From contig CAZYCQ010000043.1 in the NCBI GenBank assembly GCA_964645535.1, positions 9,964 to 29,657 on the forward strand: a DNA stretch of 19,694 nt, given 5' to 3'. Each line of letters begins with the position of its first letter. Position 1 is the stretch's first letter. Source of the stretch: an uncultured archaeon (GTDB lineage Archaea > Asgardarchaeota > Heimdallarchaeia > Heimdallarchaeales > Kariarchaeaceae). Position numbers and translations under genes: made by a program. A model generated the notes under the pieces. The model had not been told where the DNA came from and ran no database searches. It worked only from the letters and a program-made list of their open reading frames with translations. This document shows positions 2,031 to 18,563 of the stretch, in pieces.

Positions 2031-3752
2031 ATGGAAAATGATTTGATTGCTCCTCATGGTGGAGTATTGGTAGATCGCAGGATCTATGGAGAGGAAGGGC
2101 AAAGGTTGCTTGAAAAAGGCCAGTCACTTCCCCAAATCGTTCTTACTCCCCGATCGTTGGCGGATCTGGAATGCATCGCCACAGGTGTCTATTCTCCTCT
2201 TACTGGCTTCATGACCCAAGAAGATTACGAAAGTGTAGTCGAGACCATGCGGTTGGCTAACGGTCTGGTCTGGTCCGTTCCGGTCACCCTGCCTGTTGAC
2301 CGCAAGACCGCGGAACCCCTTTCCGTAGGGGATGAGGTGGCTTTGGTCTGGGAGGATCAGGTTCTGGCCATCATGGAAATCAGTGACAAATACGTCCCTG
2401 ACAAGGCAAATGAGGCGGAAAAGGTATACCTGACGACAAACGAGGCCCATCCCGGAGTGGCGGCTCTCATGAACTCAGGGGATGTCTATTTGGGAGGGGA
2501 GATCTGGCTTTTCTCTGACATTCCCCACAAAAAGTTCCTTGGAGAACGCCTGACGCCCCACCAGACCCGTGCCGAATTCCGCAAGAGGGGGTGGAAGACG
2601 GTGGTGGCCTTCCAGACCCGCAATCCGATTCACCGTGCCCATGAGTACATCCAGAAAGTGGCTTTGGAAATTGTTGACGGGCTTTTCCTGAACCCATTGG
2701 TGGGTGAGACCAAGAGTGACGACATTCCTGCCGATGTCAGAATGAAGGCGTACAAGACAATTCTGGAGAAATACTATCCTCAGGATCGAGTGCTGCTGGG
2801 GGTTTTTCCTGCGGCGATGCGGTATGCCGGACCCAGAGAGGCCATCATGCACGCCATTGCCCGGAAGAACTATGGCTGCACCCATTTCATCGTAGGCCGT
2901 GACCATGCCGGAGTGGGCAGCTATTATGGGACATATGATGCCCAGAAGATCTTTGACCGGTTTGAGCCAGAAGAAATCGGGATCCAGCCGCTCAAATTCG
3001 AACATGCTTTCTATTGCACCATCTGTGGGCAGATGGCCACTGCCAAAACCTGTCCCCATCCAAAAGACTATCATGTGTTCCTTTCGGGCACAAAAGTCCG
3101 GGCCATGCTTTTTGAGGGGCAACTGCCGCCCGAAGAGTTCACCCGTCCCGAGGTGGCCCAAGTCCTCATGGATTCCATGCAACCCAAGGAGATGGCGGCT
3201 CTGAAAGGTGTGACGGTCTGGTTTACCGGTCTGAGCGGTGCCGGCAAGTCGACCATTGCCAAGAACCTGAGCCGGAAACTGGAGGAGATGGGTATCAAAT
3301 TCGAGATCTTGGATGGGGACATCATCCGGCAGAATCTCACCAAGGGCTTGGGGTTCAGCAAGGAGGATCGTGATGAAAATGTGAGGCGGATCGGTTTTGT
3401 TGCCGGCCTTCTGACCCGGAACAATGTGGTGGTCATCGTTGCCGCCATTTCGCCCTACCGTGAGATCCGCGAAGAGGTGAGGCAAAAGATCGGGAACTTC
3501 GTGGAAGTCTACGTGAATGCTCCCGTGGAGGTATGTGAGCAGAGGGATGTCAAGGGACTTTACAAAAGGGCCCGTGCAGGCGAGATCAAGAACTTTACTG
3601 GTATCGATGATCCCTATGAACCTCCCCTCAACCCTGAAGTGATCTGCTATACCGACAAGGAAACTGTGGAAGAAAGCACCCAGAAGGTTTTGGACAAACT
3701 GATTGAATTGGGATATGTTGGAGCATCAGTTAAGCCGGTTTCTCAAAACTGA
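2031..3752 (+). CDS. sat: Bifunctional sulfate adenylyltransferase / adenylyl-sulfate kinase (Sat-CysC fusion)
   Basis: N-terminal Sat: [53 protein letters not shown]-terminal APS kinase: [12 protein letters not shown] (P-loop), [23 protein letters not shown]. Confidence 0.97.
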
Positions 3753-10134: not shown

Positions 10135-10794
10135 ATGTATATTGAAATACTGTTGATTATAGTTGCCTATTTTCTCGGATCCATTCCCACTTCATATTTA
10201 ATTGGAAAATATAAGTACGGATTTGATATCCGCCAAAGAGGATCTGGGAATGTTGGCGGTGCCAATGCTGCCAGAACAATGGGAATGAAGGTTGGTATTT
10301 TAAGTGGACTTGTGGATATTCTGAAAGGAACTGCTGCCACATTGATTGCAATCTGGTATTCTTCCAATTATCCTGCTGCAACAGGCATCTTTCAAGACCC
10401 AAACGTTTTGGTTGCGGCCTGTAGCTTCATGGCAGTCATTGGTCATTGCTATTCATGGATACTCGGCTTCAAGGGAGGAAAAGGGGGTGCAACCACTGCC
10501 GGTGTTGTTTTGGCGCTGGATTGGGTCACTTTTCTGGTGTTGGTCGGAATCTGGATAATTGTTGTGGGAAGCACGCGTTTTACAAGCCTAGGGAATCTAG
10601 TGGCTGTCTGGGTCATCCCTCCAATGCTCAAACTCCGAGAGAAGGTTTTGTATGAGAAGGTCGCAAGTCCCATCCCCTCTCCTGCCTACCAAATCATGTC
10701 CTTTGCTTTAGTAGTTTTAATTTATTATAGGCATCGAGACAATATCGGACGTCTGTTACAGGGAAATGAAAGAAAATTCGGGCAACGTGAGTAA
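10135..10794 (+). CDS. plsY: Acyl-phosphate:glycerol-3-phosphate acyltransferase PlsY
   Basis: LGSIP, DIRQRGSGNVGGANAAR, DILKG, GH...FKGGKGGAT and RHRDNIGRLLQGNE: all three PlsY motifs, with multiple transmembrane segments. Confidence 0.95.
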   Translation: MYIEILLIIVAYFLGSIPTSYLIGKYKYGFDIRQRGSGNVGGANAARTMGMKVGILSGLVDILKGTAATLIAIWYSSNYPAATGIFQDPNVLVAACSFMAVIGHCYSWILGFKGGKGGATTAGVVLALDWVTFLVLVGIWIIVVGSTRFTSLGNLVAVWVIPPMLKLREKVLYEKVASPIPSPAYQIMSFALVVLIYYRHRDNIGRLLQGNERKFGQRE

Positions 10795-10796
10795 AT

Positions 10797-11978
10797 TCAG
10801 GTGTTATGAAGGTCGGCAAGTTGCTCAATTTTCTCTTCCAAAGATTCTACTTTTTCGATGTTCAGCTCAACAGCCTCATCCTCCAAATCCAACTCAGCAA
10901 GGATCTCTGCTTTCCGTGAATCTCTGGCAATCTTGAATGCTTGGATCAATCTCGGATAAACTTCAACCCCTGAGACAATTGCATTCAGGGATGGTTCTGC
11001 AACACCCAAATCATTTTTCAACTCATCGCCGGTCTTTATGAGTTTCAAAAATGGTGAATTCTCAAACGATTGAAGAAATCGAGGTGCCTCATAACTCAAA
11101 TCGATGGTTTCATAGGATCTTCGCATTATTGCACAATACACCTTTCTGGAATCCAAAACCTCATCTCTCGTCATTGCAGTTCTTCCGATCACCTGATCCA
11201 CTAAGATATCCACATATCGCAAGTTTCCTTCTCCTCCTTCCTTAATTAGATCTTCAAAAGGCACATGGATAAGAAATGAAAGACCGGGATTGTATAGGGT
11301 ATCATAAAGGTCATCATATCCTGCATCATAATTTTCCCTATAGGGATCATAGAATGAGGAAATCAAGAGATTGGTCACACCTCGATTGACATAGTCTATC
11401 TTTCCCTTGGCAATCCGTTCAAACGGCCAAGCATTTTCTTCAAGGATGGGGTCATTGTCGACAATCAGAATGTTATTTCCCAAAGGGTCTTCTGAAAAGA
11501 CTGTTTTGTAAAGAAACTGGGCAGTATTGTAATGTACCCTCGAATTCTCGAATCTATCTGGAAATACGAAAATTACTGGTGGTGAATATCTGTAACTGTT
11601 TTTCAATATTTCTGACACCGTAAGTATGCTACTTACTCCAGTAGCACCTGCACCCGTAATGAGAAACATAATCCCTGGGTTTTTTGGGATCATCTTCCCT
11701 ATAAGCGGTCTTATTTTATCTTTCCAGTTTTTTACATTCTCCAAGGCGATTTCAAGATTCCTCGCAAAGCCTTCAATTTCATCAGAAATGGAAAAGACTT
11801 GGTCGTATATCTTATCGGTTTCGTGGTGACGTTTCCCAGAATTCAGTGCCAAACTTTTGATATTGTCAATTCCCCCCGCCTTCAGAGTTTCGATTAGTTT
11901 CGCTCCCATGGATTGACCGATATCTCCTGCGGCAATGATCGATACATTGATTTGTTTTTTAAATAGTCTGAACCTCAT
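10797..11978 (-). CDS. Divergent tubulin/FtsZ-superfamily protein (paralogue B, degenerate motifs)
   Basis: IIAAGDIGQSMG (T1), ALNS (T2), GAGATGVS (degenerate GGGTG[S/T]G), FPDRFENSR (T5), IVDND (T6). ATG 11978 is preceded by GGTGAG, which overlaps the upstream stop; collinear with paralogue A. Confidence 0.8.
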   Translation of the reverse strand: MRFRLFKKQINVSIIAAGDIGQSMGAKLIETLKAGGIDNIKSLALNSGKRHHETDKIYDQVFSISDEIEGFARNLEIALENVKNWKDKIRPLIGKMIPKNPGIMFLITGAGATGVSSILTVSEILKNSYRYSPPVIFVFPDRFENSRVHYNTAQFLYKTVFSEDPLGNNILIVDNDPILEENAWPFERIAKGKIDYVNRGVTNLLISSFYDPYRENYDAGYDDLYDTLYNPGLSFLIHVPFEDLIKEGGEGNLRYVDILVDQVIGRTAMTRDEVLDSRKVYCAIMRRSYETIDLSYEAPRFLQSFENSPFLKLIKTGDELKNDLGVAEPSLNAIVSGVEVYPRLIQAFKIARDSRKAEILAELDLEDEAVELNIEKVESLEEKIEQLADLHNT

Positions 11979-11982
11979 GTTC

Positions 11983-13377
11983 TCACCCAATAAGCTTAAT
12001 GATTGCAGGAATTCCCCGGAAAACATATGCCGAAAATAGCAATGAGAAATAAAGCAATCTAAAAGGATTGACAGGGCTTGGTCTCATGCTATAGATGAAT
12101 TCACGTAGAATAAAGATTACCTGCAAATCGATTTCTGTTCTTTTTGGTCTTCCCAAAGCCAAATTCGTTATTTCTTCATAAATGAATGGATCCAATTCCT
12201 TCAAGGCTTTGGTTCTGAACCTTCCCATCACATTTGAAATGGAGATGATAGGGAGCAGAATTTGGCTGAATGAAAGGATGAGGGATAGCAGAAGAGCCAC
12301 CATTACGATATTTCTTATGATTGTGCTTTTTGCATTGATTTCCGCTGAGCTGGCAAGTCCCAATCCAATGCTTCTTTCCTCTTGAGTCAAAGCATCTAAC
12401 GAAGCGGCACCCTTATCTGCCAAATAGGTTGAAAGTGTTGAATTGAAGCTTGATTGACCTGCCTGTTCAACAATTGAGATGAAAAATGGAGATGAAACAA
12501 GGAATACCAGTGAATTGAGGATGATGGTTGCAGCCAATAATCCGTATAGTGGGATGTTTCCCAAAGATTGTATTGACAATCCTGGAGTATCTGCCAATAC
12601 TTTGACAACTTCATAGTTGTTTTTTGAAAGAATACTGTCATGACCTTCATTATATCCTTCCGCTCGTTCTTTGATGGTTTTCAACAACCTGTCATAAAGC
12701 TTGGAGTTGATACGGACAAAATTCAATCCAACTAAAGATACATAGAGTATCAAAGCTATTCCAAAGTGGCCAATCATGAGAAATATGCTTCTAATCACCA
12801 TTCCAACAAGAGTTCTTCCATGAGACAACCAAATTTCAAAGAGTTGAACATCTAAAATAAAGGGTACTATGAAAGAAACATAGAGTGGTATTTTTGGCCA
12901 GCGACGATAATATGATATCTTGAATTCTCGCTCGATTGATTTTTCAAGCCATGGTGCACGTTTTGCCTCTAAAAGATCCGTAAAGGTTCCATATCCATAT
13001 TTCATGTACAATGGTGTGACCAGTATTCCTGTTAGGGCTAATATTGCAAAAAAGATAGAAATTCCCAAGGATTCCAATAAAATTCCCGCTTCAATGGAGA
13101 GGATTAACGCAGGCATGGCTAAAAAAAGCGGAATCAGAAATAGTTTTCTGAACACTCCAGTGTCCAAATAGAGCACTACATTCATTGGAAGTTTCGAAAT
13201 AATTTTTGGAAGCTGAAAGATATTTTTGAATGGTTTTTCCAATTTCTTGATGAGGGTGAAATATTCCGAATCAATCCCTTCCGGAAGATTTTCCTCATAT
13301 TTTGTCAAAAACTCCTCAAATACACAGGAAATGTCTTTTGGAGATCTAGGTCTTGACGAGATGGTTTCTGTTGTCAT
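11983..13377 (-). CDS. Polytopic membrane protein of unknown function (about 7 TM segments)
   Basis: About seven hydrophobic stretches, e.g. LGISIFFAILALTGILVTPLYM, IPLYGLLAATIILNSLVFLVSSPFFISIV, IVMVALLLSLILSFSQILLPIISI. ATG 13377 overlaps the upstream TGA (TGATG) with GGTGA upstream. Confidence 0.85.
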   Translation of the reverse strand: MTTETISSRPRSPKDISCVFEEFLTKYEENLPEGIDSEYFTLIKKLEKPFKNIFQLPKIISKLPMNVVLYLDTGVFRKLFLIPLFLAMPALILSIEAGILLESLGISIFFAILALTGILVTPLYMKYGYGTFTDLLEAKRAPWLEKSIEREFKISYYRRWPKIPLYVSFIVPFILDVQLFEIWLSHGRTLVGMVIRSIFLMIGHFGIALILYVSLVGLNFVRINSKLYDRLLKTIKERAEGYNEGHDSILSKNNYEVVKVLADTPGLSIQSLGNIPLYGLLAATIILNSLVFLVSSPFFISIVEQAGQSSFNSTLSTYLADKGAASLDALTQEERSIGLGLASSAEINAKSTIIRNIVMVALLLSLILSFSQILLPIISISNVMGRFRTKALKELDPFIYEEITNLALGRPKRTEIDLQVIFILREFIYSMRPSPVNPFRLLYFSLLFSAYVFRGIPAIIKLIG

Positions 13378-14738
13378 CAATGATCACCTTCTATCTCTCC
13401 TCTTCGGATCTTGGTCGCTTCTCTTGCCAATTCTTCCGCTATTTCCTTTGGCGCTTTGACTTCGATTTCTTCGTCCTTGTTGAGCTTGTCAATTTTAGGA
13501 TTAACCTTCCCGAAATCAGAATTATTTATTTCCTCATTCAGAATGTATACCCTGACATCTTCTGCTGCACGCATAAACTCCTTCAATTTATCTGGTACAG
13601 GGTTGCCAACGAAAAACGCTCGGAAGTGGAGACCAGCATCCTTAGAAACCTTGTATTCATGAAAGAAGTCTTTGTTGCTGAATTGAAGGAAAAGATTTCG
13701 GTACGAAGACGCTGTTATCTTCCCTTTTCCTGCTTGAATGAATATATATCCTCTTGTAGCATTGGAAGGTACCAATGGATACCCCAATGATTTCTTTATG
13801 GAACCGTCATAAAGGTCAACCAGATCTTCGGGCGTCTCTTCTTTGTCAAAAGATGCAAGAGTGGCTATTCCTTTTGGACCTCTGAATATTTCAATAAACT
13901 CATTCAGGTCGCTTGAATATCCATCACTCTCTACTTCGGTTATTGTAATCAAATCTGCCAAAACGGCCCCAATTCGTTCATTTATGGCTCCAAATATTTT
14001 TTCTGGTTTGTATTTTGAATTGTTTTCAAAAAATTCATCATTGTCAATCAACACTGTTACCAAATTCTTTGATCTGGATCCTGGTGCATAAGTAAAATGA
14101 TAGAGAGCCGCTGCTGCAATGAATTTCGTCCGTGTGTTTTCCAAACTAGATGGAAGAACCAATATGGGGACTGGACGGAGACCCTTGGAAATTAGAAAAT
14201 CTGCCAATTCTAAACTTACTCCTACACCAGTTCCTCCAGCACCTAAGATTAGGAAAACAAGGTTATGATTTGATTTTTTATGAAATTCATTTAGATATGT
14301 TTCAACAAATGCTTCAATCTTTTCTTTGTCTTTTTTGTAAATGGTTGCGCCCTTTCTGAACTGTTTTGCCGTTCCATATGGGGTGTCTCCAATATGAAGC
14401 TTGCGTGTTACCTCAATTTTTGAAAGAACGTCCTTATCGGTCTCTATGGTTGCTAAGTCATAATTGATACCGTATTGAAGAAATCGTTTCCGCAATTGTT
14501 CCACTATTCGTGCACCTGCACCACCAATCCCTATAATCGGAATTTCTGGAATTTCCCTCACTGAGGGTATATCCAACAGAGGCGTTTCTTCTATACCTGT
14601 ATCATCAACTAACACTGTCTCAGGAATCTCTTCTCCTTTGGACTTAGTGGTCGGTTTTCCTAATGCTGTTTCTAAATTGAGGAATGTAACATCTGCTCTG
14701 ATGCGGTCATCCGATCCAAAGGGCCAAAGTCTAACCAT
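13377..14738 (-). CDS. Divergent tubulin/FtsZ-superfamily GTPase (paralogue A)
   Basis: IIGIGGAGARI (T1), IETD (T2), LGAGGTGVG (T4 signature), LPSSLENTR (T5), LIDND (T6), INERI (H7), SSDLNEF (T7). About 60-aa N-terminal extension. Confidence 0.9.
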   Translation of the reverse strand: MVRLWPFGSDDRIRADVTFLNLETALGKPTTKSKGEEIPETVLVDDTGIEETPLLDIPSVREIPEIPIIGIGGAGARIVEQLRKRFLQYGINYDLATIETDKDVLSKIEVTRKLHIGDTPYGTAKQFRKGATIYKKDKEKIEAFVETYLNEFHKKSNHNLVFLILGAGGTGVGVSLELADFLISKGLRPVPILVLPSSLENTRTKFIAAAALYHFTYAPGSRSKNLVTVLIDNDEFFENNSKYKPEKIFGAINERIGAVLADLITITEVESDGYSSDLNEFIEIFRGPKGIATLASFDKEETPEDLVDLYDGSIKKSLGYPLVPSNATRGYIFIQAGKGKITASSYRNLFLQFSNKDFFHEYKVSKDAGLHFRAFFVGNPVPDKLKEFMRAAEDVRVYILNEEINNSDFGKVNPKIDKLNKDEEIEVKAPKEIAEELAREATKIRRGEIEGDH

Positions 14739-14780: not shown

Positions 14781-14976
14781 TGTTCAACGATTTAACTTTC
14801 CCACCAAATCTGCACTAGATTGACCTGAGGACATCAAATGAATTCTGCTATAATTCCTTTACAGATACCTCTTCAAAACCGATTCGTCATCTGACCTATT
14901 TGGGGAGAATATTGATATCTTCTTCCACCTACATTTCAAACCAATTAAATTCTATTGTCTCCTAGATCCATTGCAA

Positions 14977-16440
14977 ATGGGTGAATATATTAAAGCCGGT
15001 ATCATAGGAACAATTGGACCATCCTCTGCAAACGAAGAAACCTTGAAGGAAATGTTTACCAAGGGATTGAACATTGTCAGAATCAATCTATCTCACGGTT
15101 CAATTGATCAGGCAAAGAAAAATTTTGATCTTGTCCGAACCGTAAATGATACTATTGGAATACTTCTTGATTTGTCTGGTCCCAAGATGAGAATTGGGGC
15201 AATCAATGGGCATGTTCATCTGAAACAAGGTCAAGAATTTCGTATTACAAAGGAAGACGTTCAAGGTGATGAACATAGGGTCGGAACAAATTATCCGGAA
15301 TTGATAGACCTTGTCAAACCCGGAAATACCCTTTACCTTAATGATGGACTCATAGAACTTGTTGTGAAGGAAAAGACAGAAACTGACGTCATTTGTGAAG
15401 TGGTTCGAGGGGGTATACTAAGCTCTCGAAAAGGAATTAATGCTCCAGGTGTTCCCATTGGACTCTTTTCCCCCACTGCCAAAGATGTGAGAGATTTAGA
15501 GGCCACCATATCACTTGAACCCGATTTTTATGGTGTTTCATTTGTCAGACGTCCTGAAGATCTGATCCGGGTCAAGGAGATCATAGCAACCCACACTAAG
15601 GATGAAATTCATTTGGTGAGCAAAATCGAACATCAGGATGCATTGAAAAACTTTGATGAAATTCTCAAAGAAAGCAATGAAATCATGGTTGCAAGAGGCG
15701 ACCTAGGTGTGGAGATGAACCCTGCAGAAGTCCCTTTGGTTCAGAAAGAATTGATCAAAAAATGCAATAGGCTTGGAAAACCTGCAATAGTTGCTACACA
15801 AATGCTTGAATCCATGGTTGTCTCACCAAGACCAACTCGTGCTGAAGCCTCTGATGTGGCAAACGCTATTTTGGATGGGGCAGATGTCGTGATGTTGAGT
15901 GCAGAAACCGCCACCGGCGATTATCCTGTTAAAGCGGTTGAAACCATGAGGGACATAATTCTCAAGGTTCAGAATACCATTGTTCCACATAAACAAAAAT
16001 ACCTCCCCAAAGAAAATCCCAACTGGGATGCTGTCGGCAGGGCAGCTGTCTATCTTGCCGAAGATCTGGATGCCTCTGCTATTCTTGCAAATACTCGTTC
16101 TGGTGACACTAGCAGGGTGATTGCCAAATATCGTCCAAACCAGCCCATTATTTCTATCACTCCCAATAGGAAAACATTTCGCAGATTGAATATGCAATGG
16201 GGAGTCATACCCATCTATAGCAACAAAACTTACCATGATACGGACGATATGATTGAAGAATCAATACGGATTTGTCTTGAAAAAGGTCTGATCACAAAAG
16301 ATGACTTGATTGTGACTGTTGCAGGTTCATTATTGGGTCTTCCCTATACTACCAATCTCATCCAATACTATTTTGTGAAAGATATCGTGAAATCATTGGA
16401 AGCAAAAGCCAAATTCGCAAAAAATTATCTCTCAGAATGA
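14977..16440 (+). CDS. pyk: Pyruvate kinase
   Basis: TIGPS, RINLSHG, DLSGPKMR, KIE, MVARGDLGVE, ATQMLESM, PTRAE..DVANAILDG.D..MLSAETA.G.YP. ATG 14977 preferred over TTG 14971. Confidence 0.98.
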   Translation: MGEYIKAGIIGTIGPSSANEETLKEMFTKGLNIVRINLSHGSIDQAKKNFDLVRTVNDTIGILLDLSGPKMRIGAINGHVHLKQGQEFRITKEDVQGDEHRVGTNYPELIDLVKPGNTLYLNDGLIELVVKEKTETDVICEVVRGGILSSRKGINAPGVPIGLFSPTAKDVRDLEATISLEPDFYGVSFVRRPEDLIRVKEIIATHTKDEIHLVSKIEHQDALKNFDEILKESNEIMVARGDLGVEMNPAEVPLVQKELIKKCNRLGKPAIVATQMLESMVVSPRPTRAEASDVANAILDGADVVMLSAETATGDYPVKAVETMRDIILKVQNTIVPHKQKYLPKENPNWDAVGRAAVYLAEDLDASAILANTRSGDTSRVIAKYRPNQPIISITPNRKTFRRLNMQWGVIPIYSNKTYHDTDDMIEESIRICLEKGLITKDDLIVTVAGSLLGLPYTTNLIQYYFVKDIVKSLEAKAKFAKNYLSE

Positions 16441-16547
16441 AAGAGGATATTTGAAGAGGTAAGGACTTGTCAACTTTTCCTCAACGAGGCAAATACTATT
16501 AATATTTGTTTCATGAAAGTAAGGTAACAATATTTAGAGGAATCACC

Positions 16548-18563
16548 ATGAGTTTTGACAGAAGGGATCTTTTCGGCGAATTGGCAAACAAGATCGGGGC
16601 GGAAGATATCACTGACCCATTTGAATTGCTAAAAAAAGGAGATGAAGAGGCACAGAAAGGAAATCATGGAAAAGCCAAAGAATTCTATGAAAAAGCCATA
16701 GCTACTGGAAAAGCAAAGGCACAACGGTTCGAAACAAATAACCAGCATCGTTCAGCAGCTGAAATGAATTATGTCCAAGCTCTCGCCAATCTCCGATTAA
16801 ACAATACCGAGGCGGCTATGGCCTTGTATTCAAAGATAGGTACTCAATTGATTCAAGGAGGAAAGAATTACATCGACCTTTACAAAGAATATGAGGATGG
16901 AGTTTTGCTTATCACCCTAGGGGGATTGGTCTATGTACTTCAAGATCGAGTTGCAGAGGCAAAAGAGCTCTATCTTCAAATGATAAATGAAGTTGAACAG
17001 AAAGGCCAGACTGGGGAGATCCAACAAGGTCTTGACCGTTTGAAAGAGATTCTCTGGACTGTTGGATACATTATCAAAGCTATTCAAGATGTCGATCATT
17101 CTGCTCTTCAGAGTGCACAACAACTCATTTCAAAGACTATCCGCCCCAACCTCAAGAAAGCAAAAGTTGCAGGGATGGAACCATTACTAAATGAGATTGT
17201 TTCCTATACCTTGAATTACTTCCAAAGCCAAATCAAATTGCCAAAAATTTCGCTAAGTACTATCATCCCTCCTGAAATGCTTGTCAATTCTATTTTTGAG
17301 GTTCAATTGTCAGCAGTCAACGAGGGTGAGGGTGAAGCTCACTCAATTACCCTTGAATTTGAAATTCCTTCGGATCTTGAACTTGTTGATGGAGCCGCAT
17401 CTGCCACATTTGATAGGCTTTCCAGCGGTGAAAAAATCGAACATAAATTATCCTTGAGATACCAGACAAGTTTGGAAGAAGATCGAACCTTTGACCTTAA
17501 AGCCAAACTTTCGTATAAGGACATGCTCAATAATGAACAGGTTCAGTTTGTTGGTCCAATTTCTCTAGAGGTAACTGCCAAAAGCAAGAAAGACGAATAC
17601 ATGGCTCTATTAACCTCTCTCAAAGAAAAATGGGATGGTATCAAAGAACTTGGTTTTGATGAACTTATTCCTGATGCATTGATTTCAACTGTGGAAACTT
17701 TGATTTCCCAGAAAAGCTCCGATATTGAACAGCTCATTGAAGAGCAGCAATATGTTCAGGCAGATCAAGCTTTGAAAGACCTTGAAACAACCATCAAATG
17801 GTCTGAAGAGGCATTGAGGACTGGAGAAAGCTTTAAGGAACTCCGTGATGCCATTGAAAAATTGAGAAATGAATACGCGGAGACAAAACTTTCTGAAGCA
17901 GAAGAAAAACACAAACAAGAAATTGAAGAAACTATTGATAGGATAAATAAGATAAAAGAAGAGGAAAGGATTCAAGCTCTTCAAGAAAAAGAAGCCGAAT
18001 TGAACAAAAAGTGGGAAAATGAAATTGCCAATTTGAAGAAAAAGCATGAAGATGAAATAAACAACCTAAAGGCCGAACATGAAAAGACCCTGAAACTTAA
18101 ACTTACTGAACTCGAGGAAGCTCTGACAACTCAACATAGACAGCAATTAGATGAGCTTAATACAAAGAATGAACGTGGCATCCGAGAAATACAGGCTGAA
18201 TACCAAGCGGATTTGGAAAAGAAAGTAGAAGAGGCTAGGCAAAATGAAGCTGCCAAATATGAAAAAATGATTGAAGATTTGAAACAAGCCCATGAAGAGG
18301 AATTGCGACAGATCACTGAAAGATTAGAGGAAGAGAAGCAAAACGAGATCCAAAGCTTAGAAGCAAAATTTGAAGTGGAAAAAGAAAACCTACGTCAGCA
18401 ATTGAGAAATGAATTTGAAGAGGAAAAGGCACAGGCCATACAAAAAGCGATAGATGAATTTTCAGAAACGCAACAGCGAAACTTCCAAGCCAAAGAAAGA
18501 GAATATCTTGAAAAAATTGAGGAATTGAACCGTACTATTGCACGACTAGAAAGCCGAGAATAA
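16548..18563 (+). CDS. Large cytoplasmic protein: TPR/SNAP-like helical N-terminus, Ig-like (CARDB/BatD-like) middle domain, long coiled-coil C-terminus
   Basis: KGDEEAQKGNHGKAKEFYEKAI and YVQALANLRLNNTEAAMALY are TPR-like. FEVQLSAVNEGEGEAHSITLEFEIPSDLELVDG...LSSGEK...LSYKD is Ig-like. The last ~250 aa are E/K/Q-rich. No signal peptide or convincing TM. ATG 16548 is preceded by GAGG. Confidence 0.8.
   Translation: MSFDRRDLFGELANKIGAEDITDPFELLKKGDEEAQKGNHGKAKEFYEKAIATGKAKAQRFETNNQHRSAAEMNYVQALANLRLNNTEAAMALYSKIGTQLIQGGKNYIDLYKEYEDGVLLITLGGLVYVLQDRVAEAKELYLQMINEVEQKGQTGEIQQGLDRLKEILWTVGYIIKAIQDVDHSALQSAQQLISKTIRPNLKKAKVAGMEPLLNEIVSYTLNYFQSQIKLPKISLSTIIPPEMLVNSIFEVQLSAVNEGEGEAHSITLEFEIPSDLELVDGAASATFDRLSSGEKIEHKLSLRYQTSLEEDRTFDLKAKLSYKDMLNNEQVQFVGPISLEVTAKSKKDEYMALLTSLKEKWDGIKELGFDELIPDALISTVETLISQKSSDIEQLIEEQQYVQADQALKDLETTIKWSEEALRTGESFKELRDAIEKLRNEYAETKLSEAEEKHKQEIEETIDRINKIKEEERIQALQEKEAELNKKWENEIANLKKKHEDEINNLKAEHEKTLKLKLTELEEALTTQHRQQLDELNTKNERGIREIQAEYQADLEKKVEEARQNEAAKYEKMIEDLKQAHEEELRQITERLEEEKQNEIQSLEAKFEVEKENLRQQLRNEFEEEKAQAIQKAIDEFSETQQRNFQAKEREYLEKIEELNRTIARLESRE
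18006..18071 (+). repeat. Degenerate 33-nt (11-aa) tandem repeat within the coiled coil
   Basis: aaaaagtgggaaaatgaaattgccaatttgaag / aaaaagcatgaagatgaaataaacaacctaaag encode KKWENEIANLK / KKHEDEINNLK. Confidence 0.65.

Follow-up and report, generated by a model that had tools for sequence, protein, structure and literature searches.

Unequal T7 loops in a pair of FtsZ/tubulin-superfamily paralogues whose genes flank that of a membrane protein in a Heimdallarchaeial order

Introduction

The two GTP sites of alpha/beta-tubulin are unequal, one being hydrolysed and the other structural, and this asymmetry underlies microtubule dynamics; its origin is usually studied in tubulins proper. A 19,694-nt stretch of contig CAZYCQ010000043.1 from a Kariarchaeaceae genome (the window, whose positions serve as coordinates throughout) raises the question of whether a comparable division of labour exists in another branch of the superfamily. 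On its minus strand lie three head-to-tail open reading frames (ORFs), encoding two FtsZ/tubulin-fold proteins, paralogue A (13377..14738) and paralogue B (10797..11978), and, between them, a polytopic membrane protein, M (11983..13380). The window's own family is called f1 here, and f2 and f4 are other families of the same order.

The best explanation that we can offer, which as a whole we hold to have about an even chance of being right, is that A and B form an obligate heteromer in which the interface between the T7 loop of A and the nucleotide pocket of B would be the catalytic one. Paralogy, fold, motifs and distribution argue for this reading, and a predicted docking of A on B points the same way. 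Under this explanation the pair would resemble alpha/beta-tubulin in its logic, with one catalytic and one non-catalytic interface, and not in its residues, the asymmetry having arisen independently. If the heteromer is real, it represents an independent case of paralogous filament subunits dividing catalytic labour, and it adds a new cytoskeletal element, linked to the membrane, to those of the archaeal group closest to eukaryotes. A full-text literature search found no description of the A-M-B module.

A and B as full-length paralogues

Paralogue A is a divergent FtsZ/tubulin-superfamily GTPase of 453 amino acids that carries some 60 extra residues at its N-terminus and a conserved tail at its C-terminus. 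Paralogue B is a more divergent protein of the same fold, 393 amino acids long when read from the ATG at 11978 (P0023); its ORF extends to 12026, and the ATG at 11978 is the start found in public gene calls and in orthologues. With 35.5 bits against a cut-off of 33, A narrowly passes the Pfam model PF00091 (Tubulin), and B has no family match in Pfam or NCBIfam. Neither is an FtsZ equivalog, as A reaches 40.8 bits with TIGR00065 (cut-off 295.2) and B does not match this model.

The two proteins are nevertheless full-length paralogues. They match each other in BLASTP over the T4-H5 region (E-value 3e-10) and in hhalign over 337 columns (probability 99.9), and a search with the B profile finds A proteins at E-values near 1e-20, the matches covering roughly 350 residues. 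The AlphaFold (AF2) models of A (predicted local distance difference test, pLDDT, 79; predicted template modelling score 0.80) and of B (pLDDT 84) both show the complete two-domain fold, comprising an N-terminal GTPase domain of Rossmann-like type, helix H7 and an activation domain at the C-terminus. Each model has at least 500 Foldseek matches to FtsZ, CetZ and TubZ, with best E-values of 1e-12 to 1e-20. The top matches of A are CetZ2 (4b45; template modelling score by target 0.81), TubZ (4ei7), CetZ (3zid) and FtsZ, and those of B are TubZ (4ei7), followed by FtsZ and CetZ.

Profile searches agree with this placement. By sequence, the B profile matches TubZ/RepX best, the type III plasmid/phage partition GTPases (4ei7, 2xka, 4xcq), over nearly full length (E-value 7.4e-17), and the A profile matches CetZ chains, weakly, at 1.6e-8 to 3e-3. 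Similarity of the B profile to tubulins of the PDB, AtubA and Heim-alpha-tubulin is marginal (0.01 to 0.3), and no tubulin appears among the matches of the A profile at E-values up to 0.01. The pair is, then, nearer in profile and fold to TubZ, CetZ and FtsZ than to true tubulins.

Beyond the core, B lacks both the N-terminal extension and the C-terminal tail of A and carries a C-terminal helix of its own. The tail of A (residues ~394-453; window 13377-13560), modelled with low confidence, contains a near-invariant G-K-x-N-P-K-I-D-[RK]-L, then D-E-E-I-x-V-K and finally a charged helix. By analogy with FtsZ and TubZ it looks like a partner-binding peptide, for which M would be a possible target.

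Catalytic loops in this genome

The motifs and positions quoted for both proteins in a preliminary description of the window, made from the sequence alone, are reproduced by exact translation of the minus strand. In A, T1 reads GIGGAG (14514..14531), T4 GAGGTGVG (14220..14243), and T7 with the start of H8 GYSSDLNEF (13896..13922; D277 and E280), and with ENTR in T5 and DN in T6 the protein has the nucleotide loops typical of the superfamily. In B, T1 reads AGDIG, with Asp in place of the second Gly (11916..11930), T4 GAGATGVS (11631..11654), and T7 with the start of H8 NYDAGYDDL (11307..11333; G220 and D223 in the numbering of P0023). The nucleotide loops of B are thus present in part, comprising AGDIG, GAGATGVS, ENSR and DN and lacking the base-contacting Asn/Asp of H7: the guanine-contact position of this helix is Asp in FtsZ, Asn in A and Ile or Leu in the B proteins of f1.

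The pairing of the T7 residues was established by profile-profile alignment, by a MAFFT alignment in which the FtsZ of this genome served as the reference, and by inspection of the AlphaFold models. This FtsZ is a canonical one, encoded on another contig, with NVDFAD in T7. Its T7 Asn aligns with S275 of A and D218 of B, its first Asp with D277 and G220, and its second Asp with E280 and D223. The models, in which the first residue of H8 is L278 (A) or Y221 (B), give the same T7 pairing. HMMER pairs FDA of B with FDA of TubZ through a two-residue gap, which would make D218 the first Asp; this register was rejected. The conserved TPG after H8, the FtsZ reference and the start of H8 in the models all anchor the first-Asp position at G220, and the NADLNDF of f2 B proteins, which aligns without gaps to the NVDFAD of FtsZ, supports the same placement.

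With regard to the D-x-x-D/E pattern of T7, A has both residues (D277 and E280) and B, in this genome, has the second one only (D223), next to another Asp (D222). The loss of the first Asp in B, as the preliminary description had it, is therefore borne out by alignments and models, and so is the more general statement that the two proteins are paralogous and unequal in their catalytic loops. That description had also noted a short match between DLNEF of A and alpha-tubulin, with the caution that it may be convergent; the match fits the superfamily pattern D-x-x-[D/E]-hydrophobic, which is also seen in FtsZ (VDFADI) and TubZ (DASEF).

The position of the loss is of particular relevance. In SaFtsZ, the first T7 Asp (D210) swings and positions the catalytic water, D213 supplies the environment, and mutating either residue abolishes assembly (PMC8936486). 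In beta-tubulin it is the equivalent of the other acidic residue that has changed, the catalytic Glu of alpha-tubulin (E254; equivalent to FtsZ D212) being replaced by Lys (PMC13371889). Judging from these residues, the T7 loop of B is plausibly impaired, by a route other than that of beta-tubulin. The parallel with alpha/beta-tubulin drawn in the preliminary description therefore stands as regards an unequal pair and fails as regards chemistry, because the residue of B that corresponds to the alpha-tubulin Glu is still an Asp, and what B has lost is the other, 'swinging' Asp.

A predicted contact between the T7 loop of A and the pocket of B

The complex of A (residues 58-400) and B (residues 5-372) with two GTP was predicted with our own alignments and with controls, the A+B pair being run in one orientation. 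It reached an interaction prediction score from aligned errors (ipSAE) of 0.85, compared with 0.00 for the best control. In the calibration, 58 of 80 solved complexes scored this high, as did 2 of 110 mismatched pairs; these counts are approximate here given the alignments used and the presence of a ligand. At least 95% of contacts were common to the runs, and the pLDDT of the partners was at least 87. In the predicted interface, residues 271-280 of A (T7) and its C-terminal domain lie on residues 19-20, 48-50, 67-74, 141-147 and 175-191 of B, that is, on T1 (D19, I20), T2, T3, T5 (141-147) and T6/H6 (175-191); the C-terminal helix of B (350-372) adds further contacts to A. The modelled contact is of the canonical longitudinal type, with T7 of A on the nucleotide pocket of B. 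Such a result shows likeness to a complex, not binding.

These observations can be combined into a model. A and B would constitute a lineage-specific two-subunit system of the FtsZ/tubulin superfamily, belonging to a TubZ/CetZ-like branch and provided with a dedicated membrane protein, M. After a duplication that predates the order, the two paralogues would have come to form a heteromer through the canonical longitudinal contact, in which the complete T7 loop of A (D277, E280) would enter the pocket of B formed by T1 (D19), T2, T3, T5 (ENSR) and T6. This interface would be the GTP-hydrolysing one. The reverse interface, with T7 of B on the pocket of A, would be slow, non-hydrolysing or nonexistent, because the Asp with which FtsZ positions its catalytic water is missing from T7 of B. 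We further infer nucleotide binding, the identity of the hydrolysing site, a polymer rather than a dimer only, and attachment to M.

The same docking would also suit a different role of B, that of a non-polymerising accessory protein which caps, nucleates or regulates the end of an A homopolymer through its longitudinal face, or which links A to M. In the model the pocket face of B sits under the T7 face of A, as an end-binding cap would; B is devoid of the extension and tail of A and has its own C-terminal helix; and in f1 it lacks the base-contact residue of H7. However, the near-invariant T7 Asp and H8 of B belong to the opposite face and would not be needed by a pure cap, and the degenerate partner in f2 is A (see below), so that A cannot be the only GTP-driven polymer there. 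We consider an accessory role of this kind very unlikely.

Distribution of the module and loop loss in related families

The module is near-universal within one Heimdallarchaeial order: leaving the window's own genome aside, the A profile matched 43 of 46 genomes of its order and the B profile 42 of 43. Outside it, the B profile had no match in 32 sampled genomes of the class's two other families (f5 and f6) and three weak matches only in the rest of the phylum, and among 1.8 billion representative proteins it had only 38 matches. Homologues of the pair are named Heimdallarchaeota or Kariarchaeaceae in public records, one of which labels an A orthologue 'Tubulin-like protein CetZ'. In a tree rooted with FtsZ, A and B form sister clades with Shimodaira-Hasegawa-like approximate likelihood ratio test supports of 99 and 90. 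As each clade holds members of f1, f2 and f4, the duplication is older than the order. The gene order is pyruvate kinase-A-M-B at loci of the f1 type, and in f2 pyruvate kinase and A are divergent from M-B. The near-obligate co-occurrence of A and B across the order, together with the complex model and its clean controls, supports a heteromeric contact.

A comparison of motifs at 16 loci reveals how unequally the loops have fared. In f1 the pockets of both paralogues look usable. In f2, A has lost T1, T4 and T5 (with NDGFLFG at T4) and has kept the first T7 Asp (FYSYDLSDF), and B has a canonical SGGGTG, an Asn at the H7 guanine contact and, in some members, a full NADLNDF. In f4, A has a partial T4 (GAGSTG) and a T7 without the first Asp, and B has lost T4 (SSDGFS) and likewise lacks the first T7 Asp. 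The f2 A-type T4 also occurs as NNAFLLG and the f4 B-type as SSGTFS; the loci with lost loops are L017 (3674-4939, minus strand), L018 (8599-9873, plus strand) and the B genes of L023 and L024. In f2, Pfam Tubulin is matched by B (31 bits) and not by A.

Across these families, the first T7 Asp of A is kept where T4 of B is intact (f1, f2) and lost where T4 of B is destroyed (f4), and the first-Asp position of B varies in every family. Such co-variation of motifs would be expected if T7 of A acts on the pocket of B and the reverse interface is free of catalytic selection. Moreover, since the degenerate paralogue is A in f2 and B in f4, the asymmetry is not a fixed assignment of the alpha/beta type. 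Of the heteropolymer of alternating active and inactive interfaces envisaged in the preliminary description, the heteromeric longitudinal contact is what the complex model and co-occurrence support.

This pattern bears on a stricter tubulin analogy, according to which the two proteins would exist as an obligate heterodimer whose A pocket, lying under a dead T7 of B, holds a buried GTP that is not hydrolysed, and the B site would be exchangeable and hydrolysable, being activated by T7 of A from the next dimer in a polar, alternating polymer. The complete pocket and T7 of A and the unconstrained first-Asp position of B are compatible with such an arrangement, and f2, where the A pocket is gone and B is canonical, would fit a dispensable 'N-site'. 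On the other hand, B retains an Asp where beta-tubulin has Lys (PMC13371889), the sole interface modelled is of the catalytic type (T7 of A on the B pocket) and not of the N-site type, the dead pocket in f4 is that of B, and similarity to tubulins is marginal (above about 0.01 with the B profile and none up to 0.01 with the A profile). We therefore regard a strict analogue of alpha/beta-tubulin as unlikely.

Conservation of the asymmetry among orthologues

The T7 residues were counted in 35 orthologue rows of A and 42 of B, which are not fully de-duplicated. The first Asp position is D or E in 31/35 A rows and in 5/42 B rows, where it is mostly S or G; the second acidic position is E or D in 32 of the A rows and D in 40 of the B rows. 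The difference at the first Asp is thus a real trend at the level of the family, neither due to chance nor absolute. Conservation of the asymmetry across orthologous pairs, which the preliminary description had proposed as a check, is accordingly found as a family trend and not as a rule, given that two B orthologues (P0024 and P0026) keep DxxD.

The other loops of B are altered yet conserved, and not decayed. Its T1, G-[D/N]-x-[G/A], is kept in almost all sampled B rows, and it shares a G-x-x-G frame with the tubulin T1, GQCG. T4 is mostly G-x-G-G-T-G among orthologues of the window's family; with a normal GGTG in many of them, the Ala of GAGATG is local to this genome. FENSRV in T5 and DN in T6 are conserved in the family. 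The altered phosphate-binding loops attributed to B in the preliminary description do differ in motif, but with T1, T5 and T6 conserved and a local Ala in T4 they are not simply degenerate, and it does not follow from the loops of this genome that B is a pseudo-GTPase.

Conserved loops of this kind would also fit a system with no functional asymmetry, in which A and B polymerise separately like archaeal FtsZ1/FtsZ2 or CetZ paralogues, both being active and organised by M, and T7 of B uses D218, D222 and D223 instead of the canonical pair. The B proteins of f1 keep T1 (G-D-x-G), T4 (G-x-T-G), T5, T6 and the second T7 Asp, two B orthologues have the full DxxD, and cases are known in which paralogues of the FtsZ family occur side by side and serve different roles (PMC12583498, PMC9871819). 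Yet f2 and f4 keep a paralogue without GTP-binding loops, which is hard to square with an independent GTP-driven homopolymer, and both the heterodimer model (0.85 versus 0.00 in controls) and the systematic difference at the first Asp speak against such equality, which we find quite unlikely.

Several points weigh against the heteromer with a catalytic A-T7/B-pocket interface. As regards the residues, the B pocket of f1, with Ile or Leu at the H7 contact, may bind nucleotide poorly, and T7 of B may still be active, D223 being equivalent to the catalytic Glu/Asp and D222 lying beside it. Two B orthologues have an intact DxxD, namely P0024 (79% identity; DADFEDL) and P0026 (58%; EADFDDL), and the first Asp is missing from T7 of both paralogues in f4. 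Only three lineages underlie the argument from co-variation. As regards the complex, its score may partly recall solved protofilaments of FtsZ, tubulin and TubZ; the run differed from the calibration in its alignments and in the inclusion of GTP; and it covered A with B in a single orientation. Finally, the reading as a whole is built on computation.

Comparison with known systems

The likeness of B to TubZ extends to details, including a G-x-A-R-N in T3 and a C-terminal AGLPLPxR motif, and TubZ is the top fold match of B and the second of A. The C-terminal region of TubZ contacts the next subunit in the filament, as the C-terminal helix of B does in the model. The locus differs from TubZ, however, in being chromosomal and inherited by descent across an archaeal order, and in encoding an unequal pair of paralogues plus a membrane protein where TubZ is one self-polymerising protein. 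A type III partition system combines TubZ with TubR, which binds the centromere, and with a tubC site on a plasmid or phage. No TubR-like DNA-binding partner was found among the neighbouring genes of the A-M-B module. A plasmid-type TubZ partition system was rejected for these reasons: unsuitable neighbours, chromosomal synteny and no DNA-binding partner.

With alpha/beta-tubulin and the Asgard AtubA/AtubB, the pair shares an arrangement of two paralogues in one operon, one with a complete T7 and one with an altered T7, and, here as a prediction, a heteromeric longitudinal contact. It differs in chemistry, since the beta-like partner of those systems has Lys for Glu and B keeps an Asp there while losing the other one, and in layout, since the genes of those systems are adjacent and M separates A from B. 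The distributions also differ, AtubAB occurring in ~1% of Asgard genomes (PMC13394414) and A-M-B in nearly all of one order. An identity of A and B with the published Heimdallarchaeial/Kariarchaeaceae AtubAB was rejected in view of matches at E-values of 0.05 to 0.28 only, another gene order and another T7 chemistry (PMC13371889, PMC13394414).

CetZ proteins, which act in archaeal cell shape (4b45, 4b46, 3zid), provide in CetZ2 the top fold match of A, with weak profile matches. A may be a member of 'Asg.Tub', a CetZ-like group of Heimdallarchaeia and Lokiarchaeia with unknown neighbouring genes (Santana-Molina et al. 2023, PMC9871819). Asg.Tub spans both of these classes, whereas the A/B family was found only in one Heimdallarchaeial order, and the paper describes no A-M-B module and no unequal pair. 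With FtsZ, finally, the pair shares the fold and the T1-T7 framework, with a T7 of the form N-x-D-x-x-D in which A of this genome has both acidic residues and B the second one only.

Taken together, the TubZ/CetZ-like branch in these Heimdall-group Asgard archaea combines an unequal pair based on residues other than those of tubulin, a lineage-specific complementary loss and a conserved membrane partner. A bolder proposal, which we put forward tentatively and hold to be possible rather than probable, is that the pair represents a second tubulin-superfamily heterodimer in Heimdallarchaeales, independent of alpha/beta-tubulin, with one catalytic and one structural or dispensable interface and tied to a membrane protein. 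If so, the losses of GTP sites in f2 (A) and f4 (B) would be natural experiments indicating that one site per pair is enough, and how the subunits of tubulin-like polymers became asymmetric could then be tested in archaea closely related to eukaryotes.

Membrane protein M and the genomic neighbourhood

M, encoded between the two paralogues, has about 464 amino acids and at least six hydrophobic segments. It belongs to no known family, having no Pfam or NCBIfam match, and the protein atlas gave no usable assignment. Its orthologue at the same position in another family has 26% identity (E-value 1e-27). The atlas model of M is poor (pLDDT 0.56), and the closest atlas clusters are unnamed.

The probable ATG of M (13377) overlaps the stop codon of A, and the ATG of B lies 4 nt past the stop codon of M and is preceded by GGTGA. 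As part of the explanation to which we give about even odds, this layout is best accounted for by a translationally coupled operon of A, M and B.

The module is neighboured by genes for pyruvate kinase, PlsY, RidA and a tRNA-splicing endonuclease. The pyruvate kinase gene (14971-16440, plus strand) is divergent from A here, not upstream of it, and adjoins A at every locus examined (L001 4490-5881; L002 4398-5906; L017 5009-6421), including the f2 locus with the split module. This adjacency may reflect a local supply of nucleoside triphosphates for the filament or mere synteny. The PlsY gene (10135-10794, plus strand), convergent with B, encodes a glycerol-3-phosphate acyltransferase of the bacterial type (E-value 1e-48); this arrangement recurs in L001 and L002 and is absent at the f2 locus L017.

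Farther away, a fused ATP-sulfurylase/APS-kinase (adenosine 5'-phosphosulfate kinase) gene (2031-3752, plus strand) lies in a stretch whose G+C content is 49-52%, compared with about 39% elsewhere in the window. After pyruvate kinase comes the gene of a 685-aa protein without Pfam match (16506-18563, plus strand). In L001 and L002, proteins of similar size (~660-707 aa), likewise without Pfam match, also adjoin pyruvate kinase.

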